DNA of 64,000 nucleotides, from positions 2,857-66,856 of the forward strand of contig CAVRRT010000124.1 of assembly GCA_963723305.1 (NCBI GenBank), given 5' to 3'. Position 1 is the first letter of the stretch. Each line of letters begins with the position of its first letter. The DNA is from an uncultured Pseudomonadota bacterium. GTDB lineage: Bacteria; Myxococcota_A; Polyangia; Fen-1088. This document shows positions 2,484 through 54,043 of the stretch, in pieces. The translations under genes were made by a program, and so were the position numbers. The notes under the pieces are model-generated. The model worked only from the letters and a program-made list of their open reading frames with translations. It did no database searches and was not told where the DNA came from.

Positions 2484-3635
2484 ATGGAGGACATTCACCG
2501 CGCCACGCGCCGTTACGAGCAGTGGCTGGGGGGGTTGATGCCGCTCGTGCGCGCCGACCTGCGAACCAAGCACCGGCGGATGGGCGAGGGCCCTTTCTTC
2601 TTCATGCGCGCCACGTTCTACCGCTGGTGCCAGCTCTGGTGCGCCCGGGACAAGGAGAACGGCGCGGCACCCACGGCGCGCGTCGCGGCGGTCGGTGACC
2701 TGCACCTGGAGAACTTCGGCACCTGGCGCGACAGCGACGGGCGGCTCATCTGGGGCATCAACGACTTCGACGAGACGACCGTGCTTCCCTGGACGCAGGA
2801 TCTGGTGCGGCTGGCGGCCAGCGCGCACCTGGCGATCTTCGCCGACCACATCGCCGTGCGGCGGCGCACCGCCTGCGAGGCGATCCTCGCCGGCTACCGC
2901 GCCGGCGTCGAAGCGGGGGGGCGGCCATTCGTGCTGGAGGAGACGCACGGCTGGCTCCGCCGCGTCGCCATGGGCGAGCTGCGCCATCCGACGACCTTCT
3001 GGGGAAAAATGAACGGGCTGCGCACCACGCCCGAGGTCGACCGCGGGGCGGCGGCGGCCATCACGGCGGCGATGCCGGCGCGCCGGCTGGACGTCCGCTT
3101 CGCGCGGCGGGTGGCAGGCCTGGGGAGCCTCGGCCGCCCACGCTTCGTCGGCATCGCCTCCTGGCAAGGCGGCCTGGTGGCGCGCGAGGCGAAGGCAACG
3201 GCCCCGTCGGCCTGGCTGTGGGCCAACGGGACGGTGACGGCCAAGGGGACGGCGACGGCCAAGGGGACGGCGACGGCTAAGGGGACGGCGACGGCGACGG
3301 CCGGCGGCCCGAGCGACGCCTACACGGCCATCATCTCGCGCGCCGTCCGCGTCCCCGATCCCACCGTTCGCGTCGTCGGCGGCTGGCTCATCCGCCGCCT
3401 GGCCCCTCACTGCGCCCGCATCGAGCTGGGCGATCTGCCTTCGCAGCATGACGAAGAGCGACTGCTCTACGCGATGGGATTCGAGACGGCCAACGTTCAC
3501 CTGGGGACGCCGCGGGCGCGCGCGATCTTGCGCACGCAGATCGCCGCCCGCCGCGGGCACTGGCTGCACGACAGCGCCAAGGATCTGTCGGACCAGATCG
3601 TCCGCGAGTGGAGGGAGTGGCGCGCGGCCGCCTGA
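2484..3635 (+). CDS. DUF2252 domain protein
   Basis: 383 aa. GDLHLENFG and INDFDET motifs and overall layout are typical of DUF2252. Confidence 0.7.
   Translation: MEDIHRATRRYEQWLGGLMPLVRADLRTKHRRMGEGPFFFMRATFYRWCQLWCARDKENGAAPTARVAAVGDLHLENFGTWRDSDGRLIWGINDFDETTVLPWTQDLVRLAASAHLAIFADHIAVRRRTACEAILAGYRAGVEAGGRPFVLEETHGWLRRVAMGELRHPTTFWGKMNGLRTTPEVDRGAAAAITAAMPARRLDVRFARRVAGLGSLGRPRFVGIASWQGGLVAREAKATAPSAWLWANGTVTAKGTATAKGTATAKGTATATAGGPSDAYTAIISRAVRVPDPTVRVVGGWLIRRLAPHCARIELGDLPSQHDEERLLYAMGFETANVHLGTPRARAILRTQIAARRGHWLHDSAKDLSDQIVREWREWRAAA
3231..3302 (+). repeat. In-frame 18-bp tandem repeat (about 4 copies) inside the DUF2252 gene, encoding (TAKGTA)n
   Basis: Units acggYgacggcYaagggg at 3231, 3249 and 3267, plus a degenerate copy at 3285. 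Translation reads TVTAKGTATAKGTATAKGTATATAG. Confidence 0.85.
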
Positions 3636-43685: not shown

Positions 43686-44156
43686 ATGGGAATGACCGTT
43701 CAGCTCGACGACGGCGCGCAGGGCGGAGACGACGCCGACGTCGGCAACGAAGCAGTCGTCGCGGAGATCAACATCACCCCGCTGACCGACGTCTTCTTGG
43801 TGTTGCTCATCATCTTCATGGTGACGTCGACGGCGATGGTCGAATCCGAGGTCGCCTCGCGCGCCGGAATGAAGGTGGTCCTTCCCAAGGCCAACGCCGC
43901 CGGCCCCGTCTCGCAGCGGCACACCGATCCGGTCCTGACCGTCACCAAGGCGAACGAGCTCTATCTCGGATCCCGCAAGGTAGACCCGGCCAATCTGGAA
44001 GCCGAGATTCGCAAGGCGCTGACGGACGTCAGCTCGGAGACGCTGCTCATTCGCGGTGACAAGAACGTCTACCTCGGCGCCGCGGTCGACATCATGTCGA
44101 CCGCCAAGAAGGCTGGCGCCAGCCATATCGCGATCCTGACCGCCCCCACCAAGTAG
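43686..44156 (+). CDS. exbD: ExbD/TolR-family protein
   Basis: INITPLTDVFLVLLIIFMVT TM motif followed by a periplasmic domain. 156 aa. Confidence 0.75.
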   Translation: MGMTVQLDDGAQGGDDADVGNEAVVAEINITPLTDVFLVLLIIFMVTSTAMVESEVASRAGMKVVLPKANAAGPVSQRHTDPVLTVTKANELYLGSRKVDPANLEAEIRKALTDVSSETLLIRGDKNVYLGAAVDIMSTAKKAGASHIAILTAPTK

Positions 44157-44329
44157 CAGATCGTCCGAGCAAACTCGCACGCTCATTACGATAAGCGCGT
44201 GTGCGGTATGAGGCGGTTCGCTACACATGGCCCGCAGTCCTACGCACGATCGCCCCACAAATCGGAGTTGGAAATCCGGCTTAAGTCCCTAAAGGTATAG
44301 AATTATTTCGACTTTGTGGACAGTCATGA

Positions 44330-44345
44330 TGGCATGGGCACTGCA
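44330..44345 (+). promoter_or_regulatory. Candidate sigma-54 (-24/-12) promoter
   Basis: TGGCATGGGCACTGCA matches TGGCAC-N5-TTGCA at 5/6 and 4/5 positions with exact GG-N10-GC spacing. AT-rich tract (aaaggtatagaattatttcg) lies just upstream. It ends 65 nt before the ATG at 44410. Confidence 0.55.
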
Positions 44346-44409
44346 TTCGTTGACGCCGCGGCAACATTTGTTACCAGGTGCCGCGCCAACCCCACAGCAG
44401 GAGTCTCCC

Positions 44410-44592
44410 ATGAAGCTCGTTCGCACCATCTTCGTTGCCCTCGCCGTTCTCCTCCCGACCTCTTGGACCATCGCCAAGGCCGCTGACGCCCCCGCCGGCG
44501 ACTCGGCTGACTCGGGCAAGAAGGAGAAGAAGGCCAAGAAGTCCAAGAAGGACGACAAGGGCGACAAGGCCGACGACAAGGCCGCCAAGTAA
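44410..44592 (+). CDS. Small secreted Lys/Asp-rich protein (60 aa precursor, ~36 aa mature)
   Basis: AGGAG lies 7 nt upstream of the ATG. Signal peptide MKLVRTIFVALAVLLPTSWTIAKA. Mature part ADAPAGDSADSGKKEKKAKKSKKDDKGDKADDKAAK. Followed by a strong terminator. The track ORF 44314..44592 is over-extended. Confidence 0.55.
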   Translation: MKLVRTIFVALAVLLPTSWTIAKAADAPAGDSADSGKKEKKAKKSKKDDKGDKADDKAAK

Positions 44593-44639
44593 CACCGCCT
44601 TCACCCGGTGAGGCTTCCGCCTCGCTGGCTCAGCTTTGA

Positions 44640-44671
44640 CCCCGGTCGCTCACGCGGCCGGGGTTTTTTTT
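44640..44671 (+). terminator. Rho-independent terminator
   Basis: Stem ccccggtcgc / gcggccgggg (one mismatch, loop tcac) is immediately followed by T8 (44664-44671). Confidence 0.75.
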
Positions 44672-44679
44672 GTCTCACG

Positions 44680-44942
44680 CCGCCCGAGATCAGCCCGCTC
44701 GCCGAGATCAGGCCACCCGAGACCACGCCGCCCGAGATCAGCCCGCCCACTCGGGATCAGGCCGCCCGCCCGAGATCAGGCCGCCCGAGATCAGGCCGCC
44801 CGAGATCAGGCCGCCCGCCCGAGATTCAGGCCGCCCGAGATCAGGCCGCTCGAGATCAGGCCGCCCGCCCGAGATCAGGCCGCCCGAGATCAGGCCGCCC
44901 GCCCGAGATCAGGCCGCCCGAGATCAGGCCGCCCGAGATCAG
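44680..44942. repeat. Tandem array of ~16 units of a 15-bp repeat GCCGCCCGAGATCAG, with 19-bp variants GCCGCCCGCCCGAGATCAG
   Basis: Units read directly from sequence. In the 3' half the units form a 19+15+15 (49-bp) higher-order pattern. 14 units carry GATC. The 15/19 mix breaks any single reading frame. Confidence 0.9.
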
Positions 44943-44986
44943 GCCGCCCACCCGCGCAGCGAGGCCGAGGCTCGTAGTCGAGCGCG

Positions 44987-45091
44987 GAGGCGGCAGGGGT
45001 GTCTCTCCGCCGCGAGCCCGCAGGCCGCTCCGATCTTTCGCCGCCGAGGATTCCTTCTCGCGAGCGGCGGGGAGACACCCCTGCCGCCTCC
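44987..45091. repeat. Long imperfect inverted repeat (about 30-bp arms, ~40-nt loop)
   Basis: ggaggcggcaggggtgtctctccgccgcgag (44987-45016) pairs with ctcgcgagcggcggggagacacccctgccgcctcc (45057-45091). 20 bp are perfect, then one mismatch, 7 bp, and a 3-nt bulge. Confidence 0.75.
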
Positions 45092-45136
45092 GCCCCCGCC
45101 GTAGAACGAGCCGAGCGCGACCCCTCCCTAAGCCAC

Positions 45137-46573
45137 CTAAGCGGTGGTGGGGATAGCGGTGAGGGCGCCGGCGACGGTCTTGCCGCCGGACGAGGCGATC
45201 CAGTCGGGCATCTGGACGCTGTCGGGAATGCCGAGGCCCGAGCCGAGCGTCTTGGCCGCCGCGACCATCGTCTGCGCGGCCGGGATGTCGCCGCCGCTCT
45301 GCGCGGCGCCGCTCGTCGAGTTGATGTCGCTCGCCGCGTAGCCGCCGTCGTTGCTCGAGTCGGCGGTCACTCCGCCGATCACCGCCGACTTGAAGTTCTT
45401 GCCCACCATCACCGAGACGTTGTGATTGCCCCAGTGGTCTCGCCCCGTCCGCGACGTCACCTTGGAGATCCCGGCCAGGTTGCGCCCGAACACGTTCCAG
45501 AAGGCGAAGGTCACCTGATCGAGCAGCCCCAGGCTGGCCAGCACGCCGTTCGTCGTGTCGGTCATGAGCAGCTTGTTCATCGCGGTGACCCCGCTGACGT
45601 GCTGATCCGACTCCGCCTGCAGGTTGCTGTCGGAGTGGTTGTCGCCGCCCATCGAGATGTGGACCGTCACCACCGGGGTCACCTTGGCCGCGATGAGCGC
45701 GCCGGCCGCCCAGAGCTGGCCGTTGACGTCGTTGGCGGTGATGTTCCCCAGCGTCGTCGCCAGCTGGTCCGCCAGCGAGCGCAGCTGCGTCTGCGAGGTC
45801 GACAGCGCGTCGAGAAACTGCGCCTGCACGCTCCCCGCCGGGTACTCGCTCTTGATGAGCGCGTTCATGCTGTCGAGATCCGTGTCCCGCTGCGCCTGCA
45901 TCGTCACCAGCGGATCGGTCTTCGTCCCCGTCAACAACTGCTTGAGCTGCATCGGCGTGATCGACGGCAGCGTGCGCCCGGAGAAGCTCACCAGCTCCCC
46001 CGCGTTCCCGCCCGCCCCCACCGCGATCGGCGCCGACTGCACCGTGCCGAAGCAGGTCGACAGGTGCTTGGCGAACGCGGAGACCATCATCTCCCCGCCC
46101 GACGTCGCCCCCAATACCTTCATCACCTTCGGCTGATCGCCGTGCACGACCGTGCCGGTCATGTAGTGGAAGAACGACGTCCGCGCCAGCACCGCCGAGC
46201 TGAGGCACCCCGCGCTGCCGCCCGTCGTCGTCACCGACGGATCGGCCCAGGGCAGCGCCGCGCCCAGCATCTGCCCCCCGACCGACACCTTCTGAGCTGT
46301 CATCTCGTCGACCGTCGGATGAACCAGGTTGGTGTTCTCGTACGTCCCCGGACAGTTGCAGTTGACCGGGTCGCCGTTGCTCGACGTGCTCAGGATCAGA
46401 TACTGGTTGTTGTTCTTCGCGTTCAGCATGCACTGCAGATCCTGCGCTGTCGCCCGGCGCGGGTTCAGCAGAAACCAGGGGGGAAGCCCGGTCGCCAGCG
46501 CGCGCAGGCCGATGTAGCCGCTGCCGAACAGCCCGGCGAGGAGACTTTCCCGTCGTGTAACTGGCTTAATCAT
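45137..46573 (-). CDS. DUF1552/DUF1501-type protein (Tat-like N-terminus, GRDHW motif)
   Basis: 478 aa. N-terminus MIKPVTRRESLLAGLFGSG. GRDHWGNHN near the C-terminus. AAGGAG RBS. Sits directly after the DUF1588/1592-like gene, a pairing I recognise from Planctomycetes and Myxobacteria. Confidence 0.6.
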   Translation of the reverse strand: MIKPVTRRESLLAGLFGSGYIGLRALATGLPPWFLLNPRRATAQDLQCMLNAKNNNQYLILSTSSNGDPVNCNCPGTYENTNLVHPTVDEMTAQKVSVGGQMLGAALPWADPSVTTTGGSAGCLSSAVLARTSFFHYMTGTVVHGDQPKVMKVLGATSGGEMMVSAFAKHLSTCFGTVQSAPIAVGAGGNAGELVSFSGRTLPSITPMQLKQLLTGTKTDPLVTMQAQRDTDLDSMNALIKSEYPAGSVQAQFLDALSTSQTQLRSLADQLATTLGNITANDVNGQLWAAGALIAAKVTPVVTVHISMGGDNHSDSNLQAESDQHVSGVTAMNKLLMTDTTNGVLASLGLLDQVTFAFWNVFGRNLAGISKVTSRTGRDHWGNHNVSVMVGKNFKSAVIGGVTADSSNDGGYAASDINSTSGAAQSGGDIPAAQTMVAAAKTLGSGLGIPDSVQMPDWIASSGGKTVAGALTAIPTTA

Positions 46574-46588: not shown

Positions 46589-48994
46589 TTACAGACCGAT
46601 TCCGAGTGAGGTGGGGGACTCGCAGGCCAAAACAAAGGTCGAACGCACCGAGTTCGTCTGGGCCGAGGTGCTGCCGGTGGTGGTACCGCCGGTGAAGCCC
46701 CGCCGGTCGTGGTGGTCTTCACCTTGGCGGCGGCGGCGCAGTGGTTCTCGAGGATGGTGAGGGCCGGGTCGTGGAGCGGATCGCTGGGATTGATCCCCAT
46801 GACCTGCTCGACGAACTTCGTCAGAGGAGCCCGTCGGTGTTGGCGCAGGTGGTGCTGCTGCTGGTGTACGGCCCGCCGGTCACGTCGACGACCAGCTTGG
46901 CGACGTTCTCGCAAAGCTCCTCGGTCGCCGCGCGGTAGAAGAGGTCCGGGATAGGCCGGCGTGACCGGGGTCTGCGATCCGCGGCTGAACGCGTCGGCCG
47001 CCACGCTGCCGGCGATGGTCAGCGTGGTGCGTCTGCGCCGAAGTCGGCACCGCCGCCTGCAACGCGCACACGTCGGAGATCCCCATCCGATTGGAGAGCG
47101 CCGCGCAGAGATGAGCCTGCCGCGAGATGCTGATGGGAACCGTCTCGTTTCCGCTGGAGTCGGCCGGGTAAGTCGTGGTGGCCGCCGCGCCCGTCACGAG
47201 CGCCGAAGAGAAGAGCTCCTTCACCAGCGCCGGGAAGTTGTAGTTGCTGCTCACGAAGTCGGCCACGATGCCGCGGAAGACCGGATCGCTCTGCGAGCAG
47301 GCGTTCGAGTTGGCCCAGAAGCAGAGCTGCTGGGCGACCGAGACCGCGAACAGCGGCAGCGGTCCGCCGGCGTCGGTGGTGTCTTGATCGGTCGCCTGCA
47401 GGAGGAGCGGCCCGAGGTCGGTCATGCTCGGTCCCGGTCGAGGGGCTCGCCCAGTTGACGTCGGCAAAAGCGAACGCCGCCGCCAGCGGCGCCGCCGGCC
47501 GCGGGTTCGGCTGCGAGCCGCTGAACGGGTTCGCCACGAAGTCGTTGCGATCGTTGAAGTCATACTGATTGCCGAAGAACATGCGCATCGGGTCGAGGCT
47601 CTTGTGGCAGCCGTAGCACTCGCCCGATGGTCGTCGTGTGCGCGGAGGCGAGACCGACCTCGCTGAGCGGGGTGAGGTTGTTGTCGCTGGTGAACGACTG
47701 CCCGAGCGACGCCAGCAGCGTCTGGTTCATCGTCACGCGGTGCTGGTTGCTGTCGTTCGTGTTCCAGAGGGCGAGAAAAGCCGGCGTCGTGTAGAAGCCG
47801 ACCCGCGGCATCGCCAGCTTGACCGTGCTCGCCGTCCGCAGCGTGGGGAGGTCGTAGGGCTGGACGTACGCGTCGCCGCTCTGCTTCGGGGCGATGGTCA
47901 CCCACCGCCAGTCGGAGACGTCGTTGTCGGTCATGTAGGGCTTCGAGGGGTGCTCCCAGCAGTCGGGGCTGGCGGCGAACGGATAGCGCGGCGTGTAGCC
48001 GATGAGACGCTGGAAGAGCTGCGCGTAGCCGCCGGTGGGCGTCGCGAAGCCGGTGCTGGTCCCGCCGAACTGGACCACCGTCTTGGTCGTCCCGCTGGCC
48101 GCGTCGCCGACCCCTTGGCAGGTGGTGAATCCACCGGTGCCGCCGAAGAGGAACGAGCTCCCCATCGTCGCCGGCTTCTCGTCGTCGAAGGTCATGTAGT
48201 TGGCGCTGCTCGGGTTGAGGGCGTCGTCGAGCGCGATGGTGTCGACGTAGTCGAGCTTCCATCGACAGCTTGGCGGTGGTGTTGGCGCCGCCGCTGAAGT
48301 TGTAGGGCTCGTCGTCCGGCATCTCGATCTGCGTGTAGAGGCTCATGAGCCCGGTGGTCATCATGAACCGCTGCGTGGTGAGGACGTCGGAGAAGGGTTC
48401 GGTCCCCTCCTTCACCATCTGCCAAGCGGTCAGCGCGAAGCTGTCCTGAAGGTTCTGAACCAGCTTGAAGTAGACGTCGTCGCCCACGGCGCTGGTCCCG
48501 AACGGACCGAAGTCGAACCCGCCGTTCTCCAGCAGCTGCGGCTTGAAGTCCTGCGTGGGGGTAAATCCGACCTGCTGGAACAGGTTGCGGAAGAACGGGA
48601 TCATCTTCCCCTGGAACTGCGGCTGGAAGGTGGCGCTCGACTCCCAGGTGATGATGAGCTGCTGCAAGCCCGCCGGGCCCATCGACTGAACCGTGGCGAC
48701 CTCGTCGTCGGTGCAGGGCATTCCGACCAACAGGTCCTTGATCTTGCGACAGGTGGGCGCCGCCAGCGCGGGCGTGAAGGTCGTCGGCATGACGGTCACG
48801 CCGCCCGCGTCGACATTGCTCCCGCCGCCGCCGGTCGGGGTGCCGCCGCCAGACCCAGTGGAACCGCCAGAGCCGCTCGAGGAGCCACCAGAGCCGCTCG
48901 GCGAGCCGGCCCCGATATTTCCCTTGCAGCCGTAACCCAGGGAGGCAACGAGCAAAAGTGCCAGGCTCATTCGCCGGAATTCGTTCGTCAACAT
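46589..48994 (-). pseudogene. DUF1585/1588/1592-type lipoprotein gene carrying at least 7 single-nt indels
   Basis: Protein-like sequence jumps between frames. ORF 46880..48994 covers the N-part (lipobox LGYGC) and a later block (MTDLGPLLLQATDQ...). ORF 47560..48195 covers KLDYVDTIALDD...SEVGLASAHTTT. ORF 47019..47588 covers GECYGCHKSLDPMRMFFGNQYDF. ORF 46570..47004 covers TLTIAGSVAADAF and TKFVEQVMGINPSDPLHDP. An unlisted frame covers PDLFYRAATEELCENVAKLVVDV. The final block NSVRSTFVLACESPTSLGIGL ends at the TAA stop 46589-46591. Confidence 0.65.
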
Positions 48995-49248: not shown

Positions 49249-49932
49249 GTGCGTTCGAAACGCGCTTTTCATCGAGATATCTCTAAACTCGCGCCCATGA
49301 TGACGATGACGATTCTGTGCGCGGCGACGTTGATCGCGGCGGATGCGGCGCCGGCCGGCCGACTCTCGCCCGACGTGTCGAAGGAAATGATGGCGGCAAT
49401 CGTCGCGACAAATAAGGCCCTCGGCCTCGAGAGTTGGCCGATGCATGACGTCAAACCCTGCATCGATCGCGGCGGTCAGGGGATCACCGCCAAAGAGGTG
49501 ACTCCGGACGAATCGCGCAAGTGCGCCGCGTCCGCAATCGAAAAGGGATTCCCGGAGCTCGGCAAGTCGTACGTGCTGGCCATCCCGATGGCGGAGATCG
49601 GCCCGGTCACCGTCCTGGCGATCGGGATCGGCGCCAACGAAGGCTGGGGGGCTTACTCCTGCGATCCCGACCGCAAGTGCCTGCCGGTGAAGATCGGAGG
49701 TGCCAACAAGTGGGGCAAGCGGATCGCCGATCGATTGGCCCGCGCTTGCGGTGAGACGACGACGCTCTGGTTCCCCATCGACAAGCGCGCCTGTGCGGGG
49801 ACTGCGCCCGCGGCGGCCACCGCGCCCCCGCCCGCGGCGGCCACCGCGCCCGCGCTGACCGCGCCCGCGCCCGCGCTGACCGCGCCCGCGCCCGCGCCCG
49901 CGCCGACCGCGCCGCCGCCCGCCAAGCACTGA
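49249..49932 (+). CDS. Hypothetical secreted Cys-containing protein with Ala/Pro-repeat tail
   Basis: 227-aa track ORF. Likely signal from the internal MMTMTILCAATLIAADA (49297). Body is protein-like. C-terminus is APAAATAPPPAAATAPALTAPAPALTAPAPAPAPTAPPPAKH. Confidence 0.45.
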   Translation: MRSKRAFHRDISKLAPMMTMTILCAATLIAADAAPAGRLSPDVSKEMMAAIVATNKALGLESWPMHDVKPCIDRGGQGITAKEVTPDESRKCAASAIEKGFPELGKSYVLAIPMAEIGPVTVLAIGIGANEGWGAYSCDPDRKCLPVKIGGANKWGKRIADRLARACGETTTLWFPIDKRACAGTAPAAATAPPPAAATAPALTAPAPALTAPAPAPAPTAPPPAKH

Positions 49933-49950
49933 CCGCCCTGCAAGAGCACG

Positions 49951-50025
49951 TCTGTTCTGGCGCGTCTGTCTGGCGCGTCTGTCTGGCGCGTCTGTCTGGC
50001 GCGTCTGTCTGGCGCGTCTGTCTGG
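49951..50025. repeat. 13-bp tandem repeat TCTGTCTGGCGCG, about 6 copies
   Basis: tctgttctggcgcg followed by four exact tctgtctggcgcg units and a partial tctgtctgg. It starts 19 nt after the stop of the 49249..49932 gene. Confidence 0.9.
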
Positions 50026-50128: not shown

Positions 50129-53100
50129 TCACCCGACGAAGAGCCGCGCGTTGCGGAAGAGGCGCATCCAGGGACCGTCCTCGCGCCAGCCGGCGGGGTG
50201 CCAAGAATGTTGGACGGCGCGAAAGACCCGCTCGGGATGCGGCATGAACAACGTGACGCGGCCGTCGATGGTGGTGACGCCGGTGATGCCGTGGAACGAC
50301 CCGTTGGGATTCTCCGGGTAGCGCTCGGTGGCGCGGCCCCGGTGATCGACGAAGCGCGCCGCCACCAGACCGGCGGCCTCGATCTCTGGACCGCCGGCGT
50401 CCGTCGGAAACTCCGCTTGCCCCTCGCCGTGCGCGACGACGATCGGGAGCCGCGAGCCCACCATCCCGCGAAGCAGGACCGACGGCGTCTCGGCGATCTC
50501 GACCATCGACAGGCGCGCTTCGAACTGATCGCTGCGGTTGCGGACGAAGCGGGGCCAGGCCCCGGCGCCGGGGATGATCTCCTTGAGGGCGGAGAGCATC
50601 TGGCAACCGTTGCAGACGCCCAGCGCAAAGCTGTCGGGGCGGGCGAAGAAGCCGGCCAGGAGATCCCGGGCGCGCGGTTGAAAGAGGATCGACTTTGCCC
50701 ACCCGAGGCCCGCGCCCAGCACGTCGCCGTAGGAGAACCCGCCGCAGGCGGCCAGCCCCTTGAAGTCGGTGAGATCGACGGCGCCCGACAGCAGATCGGT
50801 CATGTGGACGTCGACGGCGTCGAACCCGGCGCGGTCGAAGGCGGCCGCCATCTCGATCTGGCCGTTGACCCCCTGCTCGCGCAGGATCGCCACGCGCGGG
50901 CGAGCGCCGCCACGGGCGCGCAGCGGCGCCGTGAGGTCGTCGTTCAGATCGAAGGTCAGGTGCGCGGACAGGCCGGGATCGTCGGCGCGGACCCGGCCGG
51001 CCTGCTCCTCGTCGGCCGAGGTCGGATCGTCGCGCAGCGCCTGGATGGCGTGCGTCGTCTCTGACCAGAGGCCGCGCAGGAAGGTGCGGCGCTCCTCGAA
51101 GATCGGCTTGCCCGCCAGACGGAAGATCAGGCGATCGTCGGCGCGCGGGGCGCCCAGCCGGCGGACGGCCGGCGCCGAGATGCCATGTCGACCGAGCGTC
51201 GCCACCACGCGCGGAAGATCGGCGCCGCGCACGGCGATCACCGCGCCAAGCTCTTCGGCGAACAGGGTGGCGATCGGATCGGGCCCCAGGAAGGTCAGAT
51301 CGACGTCGAGCCCCACGCCGCTGGCGAACGCGATCTCGAGCAGCGTCACCAAGAGGCCGCCGTCGCTGCGATCGTGATAGGCGGCGACGAGGCCGGCGCT
51401 GTTGAGCTCCTGCACCGCCCCGAAGAACCGCGCCAGAAGCGCGGGATCGTCGAGATCGGGCGGCGTCGCGCCGAGCGCGCCGTAGACCTGCCCGAGGGCC
51501 GAGCCGCCGAGGCGATTTTTCCCCTGGCCGAGATCGATGAGGAGCAGCTCCGTCGGTCCGGTCTCCGGCGCGATGGCCGGCGTGAGCACGCGCCGCACGT
51601 CGGTGACCGGCGCGAAGGCGGTGACCACCAGCGAGAGCGGCGCGGTGACGCTGAGCGCGCTGTCGCCCGCCTGCCAGCTGGTGCGCATCGACAGCGAGTC
51701 CTTGCCGACCGGGATGGCGATGCCCAGCGCCGGGCAGAGCTCGCTCCCCACGGCGCGGACCGCGTCGTAGAGGCGGGCGTCCTCGCCGGGATGGCCGGCG
51801 GCGGCCATCCAGTTGGCCGACAGCTTGACGTCGCCGAGGCGCGCGATCGGCGTGGCGGCGATGTTGGTGATCGCCTCGGCGACCGCCAGACGGGCGGATG
51901 CGGCGGCGTCCAGCAACGCCACCGGCGCCCGCTCACCCATCGCCATCGCCTCGCCGGTCGTCACGTCGAAGCCGGTCGTCGTCACCGCGGCGTCGGCGAC
52001 CGGCACCTGCCAGCGCCCGACCATCTGATCGCGGGCCGTCAAGCCACCGACGGTGCGATCGCCGATGGTGATGAGGAACGTCTTGTCGGCGACGGTCGGC
52101 AGCCGCAGCACGCGGCGTACCGCCTCCCCCAGATCGATCCCGGCGGTTGCGAACGGCGCGGGCTTGGGCGCGAGACGCGTCGCCTGGCGCGTCGACCGGG
52201 GCGGCTTGCCGAGCAACACCCCGAGCGGCATGTCGACGGGGTCAGCATCGGGACGTCCGGCGGCGAGCGCATCCTCGACGACCAGCCGGCCGTCGTCGGT
52301 GGCGCGGCCGATGACCGCGTGCGGGCAGCGCTCCCGCGCGCAGAGCGCGGCGAACGCCGGCAGCCGGTCGGCGGAGATCGCCAGCACGTAGCGCTCCTGC
52401 GCCTCGTTGCACCAGATCTCCAGCGGCGAGAGCCCGGGCTCGGCGCTGGGGATGTCGCGCAGCGCGAACCGCGCGCCGCGGCCGCTGTCATGCACGAGCT
52501 CAGGGAGCGCGTTGGAGAGCCCGCCCGCGCCCACGTCGTGAATCGACAGGATCGGGTTGGCGGCACCCTGCGCCGCGCAGCGATCGATCACCTCCTGACA
52601 GCGCCGCTGCATCTCGGCGTTGTCCCGCTGCACCGACGCGAAGTCGAGATCCTCGCTCGACGCGCCCGAGGCCAGCGACGACGCCGCGCCGCCGCCCAGG
52701 CCGATCAGCATGGCCGGCCCCCCCAGCACGACGATCGGTGTCCCCGCCGGGATCTCGGCCTTCTTGACCTGCTCGGCGCGCACGTTGCCGAAGCCGCCCG
52801 CCACCATGATCGGCTTGTGGTAGCCGCGCACCTCGCGGCCTGAAGGGCCCTCGATCTCCAGCTCGAAGGTGCGAAAGTATCCGGCCAGGCCGGGGCGGCC
52901 GAACTCGTTGTTGAAGGCGGCGCCCCCGATCGGCCCCTCGAGCATGATGTCGAGCGCGCTGGCGATCCGCTCGGGCTTGGCGGCCGGCCGCTCCCAGGGG
53001 CGGGGCGCGCTCGGCAGGCGAAGGTTGGAGACGGAGAAACCACTCAGCCCCGCCTTCGGGCGCGCCCCGCGGCCGGTCGCCCCCTCGTCGCGGATCTCGC

Positions 53101-54043
53101 CGCCCGAGCCGGTCGCCGCCCCCGCGAACGGCGAGATGGCGGTGGGGTGATTGTGCGTCTCGACCTTCATCAAGATGTGCACCGGCTCGACGTGCGTGCG
53201 GTAGATGCCGCTCGCGGGATCGGGCGCCAACCGCCCAGCCTCCACCCCGGCGATCACCGCGGCGTTGTCGTGGTAGGCCGAAAGCACGCCGCCCGGGCTG
53301 GCCTCGGTGCTGCGCCGGATCATCTGGAAAAGCGTCTGCGGCTGGCGCTGGCCGTCGATCACGAAGTCGGCGTTGAAGATCTTGTGGCGGCAGTGCTCGC
53401 TGTTGGCCTGCGCGAACATCATCAGCTCGACGTCGGTCGGATCGCGGCCGAGCGTGGCGTAGGCGTCGACGAGGTAGTCGATCTCGTCGGGCGAGAGCGC
53501 CAGTCCCAGCGCATGGTTCGCCTTCGCCAGCGCGGCGCGCCCGTCACGGCCGAGCGCCACGCGCCCGAGGGGGCGCGGCGCCGGACGCTCGAACAGGCGC
53601 GGTGCCTCGCTGGGACGATCGAGCACCGACTCGGTCATCCGATCGGCCAGCGCCCGCACGAATCCGGCCTCGTCGACGATCTCGCCGACGACGACGTAGC
53701 TGACGGCGCGCTCGATCCGCCGCACCTTGCTGAGACCGCAGACGTGAGCGATGTCGGTCGCCTTCGACGACCAGGGGGAGATCGTTCCCAGGCGCGGAAC
53801 GACCATCAGCCGCCGGCCCGAGGCCACGGTGGCGCGCCCGGCACCGTCCGGCGGGCGCGGCCCGTAGGTCAAAAGCTCGTGCAGGATGCGCGACTCCTCC
53901 TCGGTCAGCGTCCCGTCGACGTCAGCGAAGTGCAGGTAGGTGCCGTTGAGAGCGCGCGCGCCAGGGTTGGTGCGGCGAATGGCCGAGAGCCGCTTCTGCA
54001 AGCGCCCTGCGCCGAGCGCGCTCCCGCCGACGACGTCAATCAT
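50129..54043 (-). CDS. purL: Phosphoribosylformylglycinamidine synthase (single-chain large PurL)
   Basis: 1304 aa, colinear with large Pur[35 protein letters not shown]-terminal glutaminase GVCNGCQM...HGEG. Confidence 0.9.

Follow-up and report, generated by a model that had tools for sequence, protein, structure and literature searches.

A GATC-studded tandem array between convergent genes of an uncultured Polyangia bacterium is very probably a lineage-restricted hypervariable minisatellite

An array of short GATC-bearing direct repeats lies between two convergent genes in the window analysed here (the whole stretch of contig DNA, 64 kb in length), and is very probably a hypervariable intergenic minisatellite (VNTR locus) restricted to one lineage of uncultured Polyangia (Myxococcota) bacteria. 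Its units stand in tandem, its copy number varies between conserved flanks and it is absent from more distant relatives, as in minisatellite and VNTR loci elsewhere. A minisatellite was one of several readings put forward in a first-pass annotation of this DNA, and it is the one that the comparison with related contigs supports, both through variation of copy number and unit sequence at about 98% flank identity and through absence of the array, or its replacement by unrelated arrays, at about 90% flank identity. As the array lies 3' of both convergent genes, a change in copy number alters neither a promoter nor a reading frame, and we infer from this position that the array is most probably selectively neutral spacer DNA, with a clade-specific function as a possibility. 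At most, its greatest effect would be a longer untranslated tail on the transcript of the gene to its right.

Manual and scripted unit parsing resolved 16 head-to-tail units at 44676-44942, with lengths of 15, 18, 19 or 20 bp. Tandem Repeats Finder reported a single array at 44675-44949 (16.7 copies; periods 15, 34, 49 and 118; scores 278-361; 85% matches at period 49), which was the top-scoring array in the window, the runner-up reaching 145. Both approaches bear out the initial description of about 16 units of 15/19 bp over about 265 bp. The common 15-mer, GCCGCCCGAGATCAG, is present in eight identical copies and the common 19-mer, GCCGCCCGCCCGAGATCAG, in four, the longer form being the 15-mer plus GCCC, an extra copy of the internal GCCC. 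One 20-mer is the 19-mer with an inserted T, an insertion through which GATC is lost, and one 15-mer unit carries a C>T change. The 3' part of the array consists of perfect 15-mers and perfect 19-mers together with two variants bearing a single change, and unit lengths from 44761 onwards follow the order 19,15,15 / 20,15,15 / 19,15 / 19,15,15. The 19+15+15 higher-order unit that had been proposed is thus seen in three of the four blocks, and the first block is identical in sequence to the last. A perfect 3' half next to a degenerate 5' part (Table 1) points to a recent expansion.

As the first-pass annotation had counted, 14 of the 16 units contain GATC, at spacings of 15-35 bp. The G+C content of the array is 0.70-0.76, in a window of 69% G+C. 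The unit contains no + strand stop codon, so that the array can be read through in each of the three + frames; TGA within CTGATC shuts the - frames. The unit itself is non-palindromic and has no copy in the rest of the 64 kb on either strand, where its 8-mer core gave one reverse-strand match only. CRISPR arrays, REP/BIME and MITE elements share with this locus the presence of short repeated DNA in intergenic space. A CRISPR array is ruled out, as it had been from the start, by units that abut without spacers, and REP/BIME or MITE elements by a unit that is non-palindromic and undispersed within the 64 kb.

Table 1. Position and character of the array, its flanking features and the corresponding arrays of close relatives (window positions unless a relative is named)
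Feature	Position	Strand	Description and basis
ExbB gene	ends 43675		Upstream of the small-protein gene
ExbD gene	43686-44156		Upstream of the small-protein gene; Pfam PF02472
Gene for 60-aa secreted lysine-rich small protein	44410-44592	+	Left flank, downstream of ExbB/ExbD; ORF and translation
Stem-loop in 3' UTR of small gene	44605-44628	+	10 pairs, kept with one-sided changes; RNAalifold, 10 relatives
Intrinsic terminator of small gene	44638-44672	+	12-bp G+C-rich stem, then T8; terminator scan
Array in window			16 units; 266 bp
Degenerate, apparently older 5' part of array	44676-44760	no strand	4-5 units of 15-19 bp, 4 with GATC; unit parsing
Homogenised, apparently young 3' part of array	44761-44942	no strand	11 units in 19+15+15 blocks; unit parsing
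Closing partial unit GCCGCCCACC	44943-44952	no strand	3' boundary common to the arrays of L001, L305 and L311; sequence comparison
Long hairpin	44979-45098	-	46-nt arms, 83% complementary; directly after the DUF1501 stop, outside the array; inverted-repeat search
DUF1501-like gene, 478 aa	45137-46573	-	Right flank, convergent; Pfam DUF1501 E 1.2e-05, below the family's curated cut-off
Array in L001			9 degenerate units of 15-19 bp; 157 bp
Array in L305			7 units; 123 bp
Array in L311	1945-2179 of L311		6 GATCAG-type units, then 7 units of GCCGCCCACCGCCTCGG without GATC

The features follow one another in the order ExbB, ExbD, small-protein gene, stem-loop, terminator, array, long hairpin and DUF1501 stop codon, so that the convergent intergenic position assigned earlier stands, with the small gene and its terminator on the left and the DUF1501 gene on the right. 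An identical copy of the 60-aa small protein occurs in 28 blocks of the sequence collection and is carried by the 22 contigs read; in exact-protein look-up both ExbD and the small protein were matched, and the DUF1501-like protein had no exact record. Among ten relatives the terminator of the small gene is kept, with compensatory changes at two pairs in the RNAalifold consensus, and the stem-loop upstream of it is likewise conserved; sequence constraint stops exactly at the start of the array. In relatives, an A-tract and a T-tract flank this terminator, which looks bidirectional from its sequence. No sigma-70-like promoter was found in 44000-45400. Permissive E-values in Rfam gave sub-threshold matches to anti-hemB on the terminator and to miRNA models on the repeats and the hairpin, all of which were discarded as chance.

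To the right of the array, the long hairpin has an RNA fold z-score of -5.3 but no U-tract, and no second copy within the 64 kb. The hairpin occurs in L305 and, as far as the contig extends, in L311; in L302/L245 it can be recognised in part, and L001 lacks it cleanly. It could serve as a stem-loop that stabilises or terminates the transcript, or could be a small element inserted here. The DUF1501-like protein has 723 homologues, and all those with a named source come from metagenome bins of Polyangia (Myxococcota). Upstream of its gene, on the - strand, lies a 704-aa ORF (46880-48994) without a Pfam match at E 0.01, whose orthologues (~800 aa) accompany DUF1501 in relatives and whose product may be a divergent version of the partner protein with which DUF1501 is usually paired.

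Contigs with an identical ExbD or small protein, or with close DUF1501 orthologues, supplied the same intergenic region from many independent metagenomes. Three of these (L001, L305 and L311) are close to the window, at about 98% flank identity: their ExbD genes are 97.9-98.3% identical to it in DNA, their small-gene regions 94.5-95.4%, and the 3' end of the DUF1501 gene in L305 98.7%. All three carry an array that shares with the window both its start point after the terminator and the closing partial unit, and across the array proper they match the window at 71-85% identity, with partial coverage. The test for length polymorphism in related genomes that the first-pass annotation had proposed returned 16 units in the window, 9 in L001, 7 in L305 and 6+7 in L311, exact counts being uncertain because they rest on metagenome assemblies, in which perfect repeats may be collapsed or shortened. 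The contig of L001 ends just past the array and that of L311 breaks in the hairpin just past it.

Unit sequence varies as well as unit number. The array of L311 is a hybrid, in which six GCCGCCCACC-GAGATCAG units are followed by seven GCCGCCCACC-GCCTCGG units; in the second type the 5' half-unit is unchanged and the GATC-bearing 3' half has been swapped for GCCTCGG, as if the variant unit had arisen once and had later been amplified. GATC has been lost from one or two units each of the arrays in the window, L001 and L305. Most units still contain the ATCAG(G) core, and this holds for the degenerate L001 and L305 arrays as well. Retention of this core could come from weak constraint, and concerted evolution explains it equally well.

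At greater distance the array is absent from the site. Relatives at 86-94% identity in the ExbD gene (about 90% flank identity) keep the small gene and its terminator, and the array was not found at this site in L302/L245, L243, L247 or L307/L308. L304, whose flanks are about 90% identical, has an array of unrelated 11-bp units (TCCTGATCTGG x6.3, 2782-2851) right after the terminator and a second unrelated array, of 17-bp units (GGCCTACGCAAGCCGGC x7.6, 3085-3213), further on; L243 has one copy of the 11-bp progenitor, GGTCCTGATC. Three relatives (L303, L306 and L309) have another gene downstream, and in three more (L241, L242 and L246) the DUF1501 gene has other neighbours, so that the interval separating the two flanking genes is a synteny breakpoint. 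Some close relatives have an FGE-sulfatase gene or others next after DUF1501; in others a 207-aa ORF and purL come after the small gene. Relatives with and without the array have the same neighbour genes, and thus no partner gene co-occurs with it locally.

These patterns are consistent with an origin in which a C-rich short segment just 3' of the small-gene terminator was tandemly duplicated in the recent ancestor of a narrow clade, with units later gained, lost and homogenised, presumably via replication slippage and unequal recombination. The 15/19-bp dimorphism would derive from slippage of the internal GCCC sub-repeat (GCC-GCCC-GCCC against GCC-GCCC), the periods of 34 and 49 bp from blocks of several units recently duplicated at the 3' end, and GATC would have been carried along inside the amplified unit. 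The mechanism has support from within the phylum: in mutation-accumulation lines of Myxococcus xanthus, simple tandem repeats gained or lost whole units in 27 of 39 indels (69%), and one de novo 16-nt tandem duplication was recorded (PMC11069108). The motif of that duplication, CAGAGCCTCGAAATCA, resembles the unit described here, but it went from one copy to two inside a gene (PMC11069108) and was rejected as a related array. Bacterial VNTR loci, such as those used for MLVA typing in Xanthomonas and Mycobacterium, resemble the array in having head-to-tail units of 10-100 bp between conserved flanks, in differing in copy number and variant units among close relatives and in growing through slippage or unequal exchange (PMC8002079; PMC11069108); like it they are mostly intergenic, as in the Xanthomonas MLVA schemes (PMC8002079). 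In contrast with known VNTR loci, the present array is known from metagenome assemblies of an uncultured Polyangia clade only, and it combines a dimorphic 15/19-bp unit and a 49-bp higher-order block with, in L311, a hybrid form whose 3' half-unit has been swapped. Its position downstream of both stop codons and of the terminator differs from that of a contingency (phase-variation) repeat, which lies within a reading frame or between the elements of a promoter and switches expression through its unit number.

The regularity of the array and its load of GATC invite functional readings. As a methylation-sensitive cluster, a Dam/SeqA-type or phase-variation-type switch read via its methylation state, the array would owe its meaning to GATC, and 14 sites in 263 bp do exceed the roughly 2.7 expected from the density of the window. 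Several closely spaced GATC sites are also what it has in common with Dam/GATC clusters such as the oriC/SeqA tracts, pap and agn43. The argument had drawn on the expectation that GATC is rare in DNA of ~70% G+C, which proved false for this DNA: the 63.7 kb beyond the array contain 659 copies (10.3 per kb), which is 3.65 times the number predicted from mononucleotide frequencies and the greatest over-representation among the 16 palindromic tetramers in the window, yet equal to a second-order Markov expectation of 665. A tetramer so abundant, and at its Markov expectation, is not thereby marked as a special signal, though this frequency speaks neither for nor against methylation of GATC in the organism, and the 14 sites are one motif copied by duplication, a single event rather than 14 independent ones, so that the enrichment is a by-product of amplifying one unit. 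The GATC half is moreover replaceable, as seven units of L311 are without it, no array is present in further relatives, and the array sits 3' of both genes and past a terminator, with no promoter-like site found. Known Dam switches (pap, agn43) lie in promoters, and SeqA is not known outside the Gammaproteobacteria; the known clusters are conserved and lie in the origins or promoters of that class, whereas here GATC is a passenger, dispensable in L311 and 3' of genes. A methylation-sensitive site therefore finds no support, and we regard it as hardly credible.

An iteron- or operator-like cluster of binding sites, with one site per 15/19-bp unit serving filament nucleation or the control of replication or transcription, would fit the regularity of the direct repeats and the presence of an ATCAG(G)CC core in most units of the four arrays, and iterons of plasmid and phage origins are likewise 15-22 bp direct repeats set in a row without spacers. 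Unlike those origins, however, the array lies between convergent chromosomal genes and is accompanied by no rep gene, A+T-rich region or DnaA boxes: its neighbours are ExbB/ExbD, the small secreted protein and DUF1501, with no replication initiator, partition or regulator gene adjoining, and local G+C of 0.70-0.76 leaves no A+T-rich unwinding region. Spacings of 15 and 19 bp amount to 1.4 and 1.8 turns of the helix, which would place successive sites on different faces of the helix; in typical iteron arrays the sites line up on the helix, and putative sites of 15/19 bp would spiral around it instead. Conservation fails at about 90% flank identity, the array being missing in L302, L247 and L307 despite the same gene order; even at 98% flank identity arrays comprise anywhere from 7 to 16 units, and in L311 the 3' half-unit is a different one over half of the array. 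No phage match was obtained, and the sole match in the plasmid collection was to a chromosome-sized record of 11.85 Mb, at control level. The earlier suggestion of an iteron, operator or protein-nucleation site is accordingly left unsupported for an array that is confined to a narrow clade, out of helical phase and remote from replication or regulator genes, and we consider such a role very unlikely.

Transcription offers a further route to function, since the hairpin between the DUF1501 gene and the array has no U-tract and transcription may therefore run into the array, which could then form the 3' UTR of the DUF1501 mRNA on the - strand, or a small RNA whose units act as sponge or stabiliser. 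RNA of the array on the - strand does fold better than shuffled sequences (z -3.25), but such a signal is expected from a partly self-complementary tandem repeat and has no support from conservation. The + strand is without a folding signal (z -0.24 against shuffles), no Rfam family exceeded threshold over the array region, the array is unconserved in relatives that keep the gene, and the hairpin is wholly missing in L001, all of which makes a functional RNA highly improbable. A coding reading was rejected, in agreement with the first-pass annotation: neither the longest ORF over the array nor any of the three open + frames has a Pfam match, and these frames begin past the terminator, are broken by the 15/19 mix and are not preserved in L001, L305 or L311.

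Arrays built on a GAGATCAGG core also occur far beyond the Polyangia, which raised the question of a widespread cross-phylum family of common origin or function. Metagenome matches listed include many intergenic arrays of the core with other filler and period (L233, L236, L197, L160, L211, L184 and L152, and further L179, L175, L133, L187, L190 and L194), and Nonomuraea gerenzanensis has an 18-bp array, CAGCCGCCCNCCCGAGAT x8. These came from a metagenome search with the pattern GAGATCAGGCC-N4-11-GAGATCAGGCC; since the core was imposed by the search pattern, the resemblance across phyla was itself selected for. Among the matches listed, arrays with the GAGATCAGGCC core had periods of 11 to 22 bp on contigs of 49-72% G+C, and the full GCCGCCC...GAGATCAGGCC unit was found only in L194. 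Against composition-matched shuffled cores, which gave 5, 46 and 0 loci in viral contigs, the real core gave 3, and in BLAST against plasmid records the real array had one match versus 0, 2 and 1 for column-permuted control arrays; matches across phyla moreover include a eukaryotic subtelomere and contigs of 49% G+C. The resemblance is at chance level for G+C-rich tandem arrays, and after the shuffled and permuted controls the metagenome core arrays were set aside as relatives, being a product of pattern selection. A second pattern, ATCAGGCCGCCC-N0-8-ATCAGGCC, was applied to the genome collection and was too loose: the matches listed were almost all single two-copy occurrences with in-frame gaps of 0, 3 or 6 bp, suggesting chance matches in coding DNA, and no array was among them. 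We therefore hold membership of a cross-phylum family to be exceedingly improbable.

Some of the look-alikes have features of their own. Four unrelated loci on contigs of 69-72% G+C (L233, L236, L197/L169 and L160) carry arrays of the 11-mer CCGAGATCAGG in 3-9 copies, which in L236 and L197 begin within about 15 bp of a stop triplet, probably the end of the upstream gene. The intergenic array of N. gerenzanensis (L312 1490-1640, from NZ_LT559118.1), with about eight 18-bp CAGCCGCCCNCCCGAGAT units, resembles the Polyangia unit, and one of its units supplies the TGA stop of a - strand ORF at 1619-2899. The 11.85-Mb record of this organism is labelled a plasmid and is chromosome-sized. As a relative of the Polyangia array it was rejected, the similarity being at chance by the permutation controls.

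Reading the array as a hypervariable minisatellite makes it one more of its kind in bacteria, and implies that a strikingly regular, GATC-studded array need not be a functional site. As a VNTR, the locus could help to tell strains of this uncultured Polyangia clade apart, and it is a likely point of breakage or collapse in short-read assemblies.

Sister lineages between them hold four unit types at this one intergenic site: the 15/19-bp GATCAG unit, the 17-bp GCCGCCCACCGCCTCGG, the 11-bp TCCTGATCTGG and the 17-bp GGCCTACGCAAGCCGGC. The next convergent gap holds a fifth array, with 13-bp units. The repeated emergence of different arrays at a single site next to a terminator provides a small but concrete dataset on the origin of minisatellites in G+C-rich bacteria. 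It also allows the conjecture, to which we give a low probability, that the site past the conserved terminator is a hotspot, where a specific array-generating process at convergent transcription ends gives birth to unrelated arrays. Candidates for such a process could be replication-transcription conflict, stalling at G-quadruplex or i-motif structures in C-rich tracts, or error-prone restart, with ordinary slippage as the alternative.

Another array, unrelated to the first, lies 5 kb away in the window at 49949-50025, where a 13-bp unit (CGTCTGTCTGGCG x5.8, 98% matches) occupies a convergent gap, starting 17 bp past the TGA of a + strand gene (49249-49932) and ending before a - strand gene (50129-54043). 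That a second array occupies another convergent gap suggests a general tendency of this genome. The + strand gene itself encodes a Pro/Ala-rich repeat at its 3' end (49800-49922).
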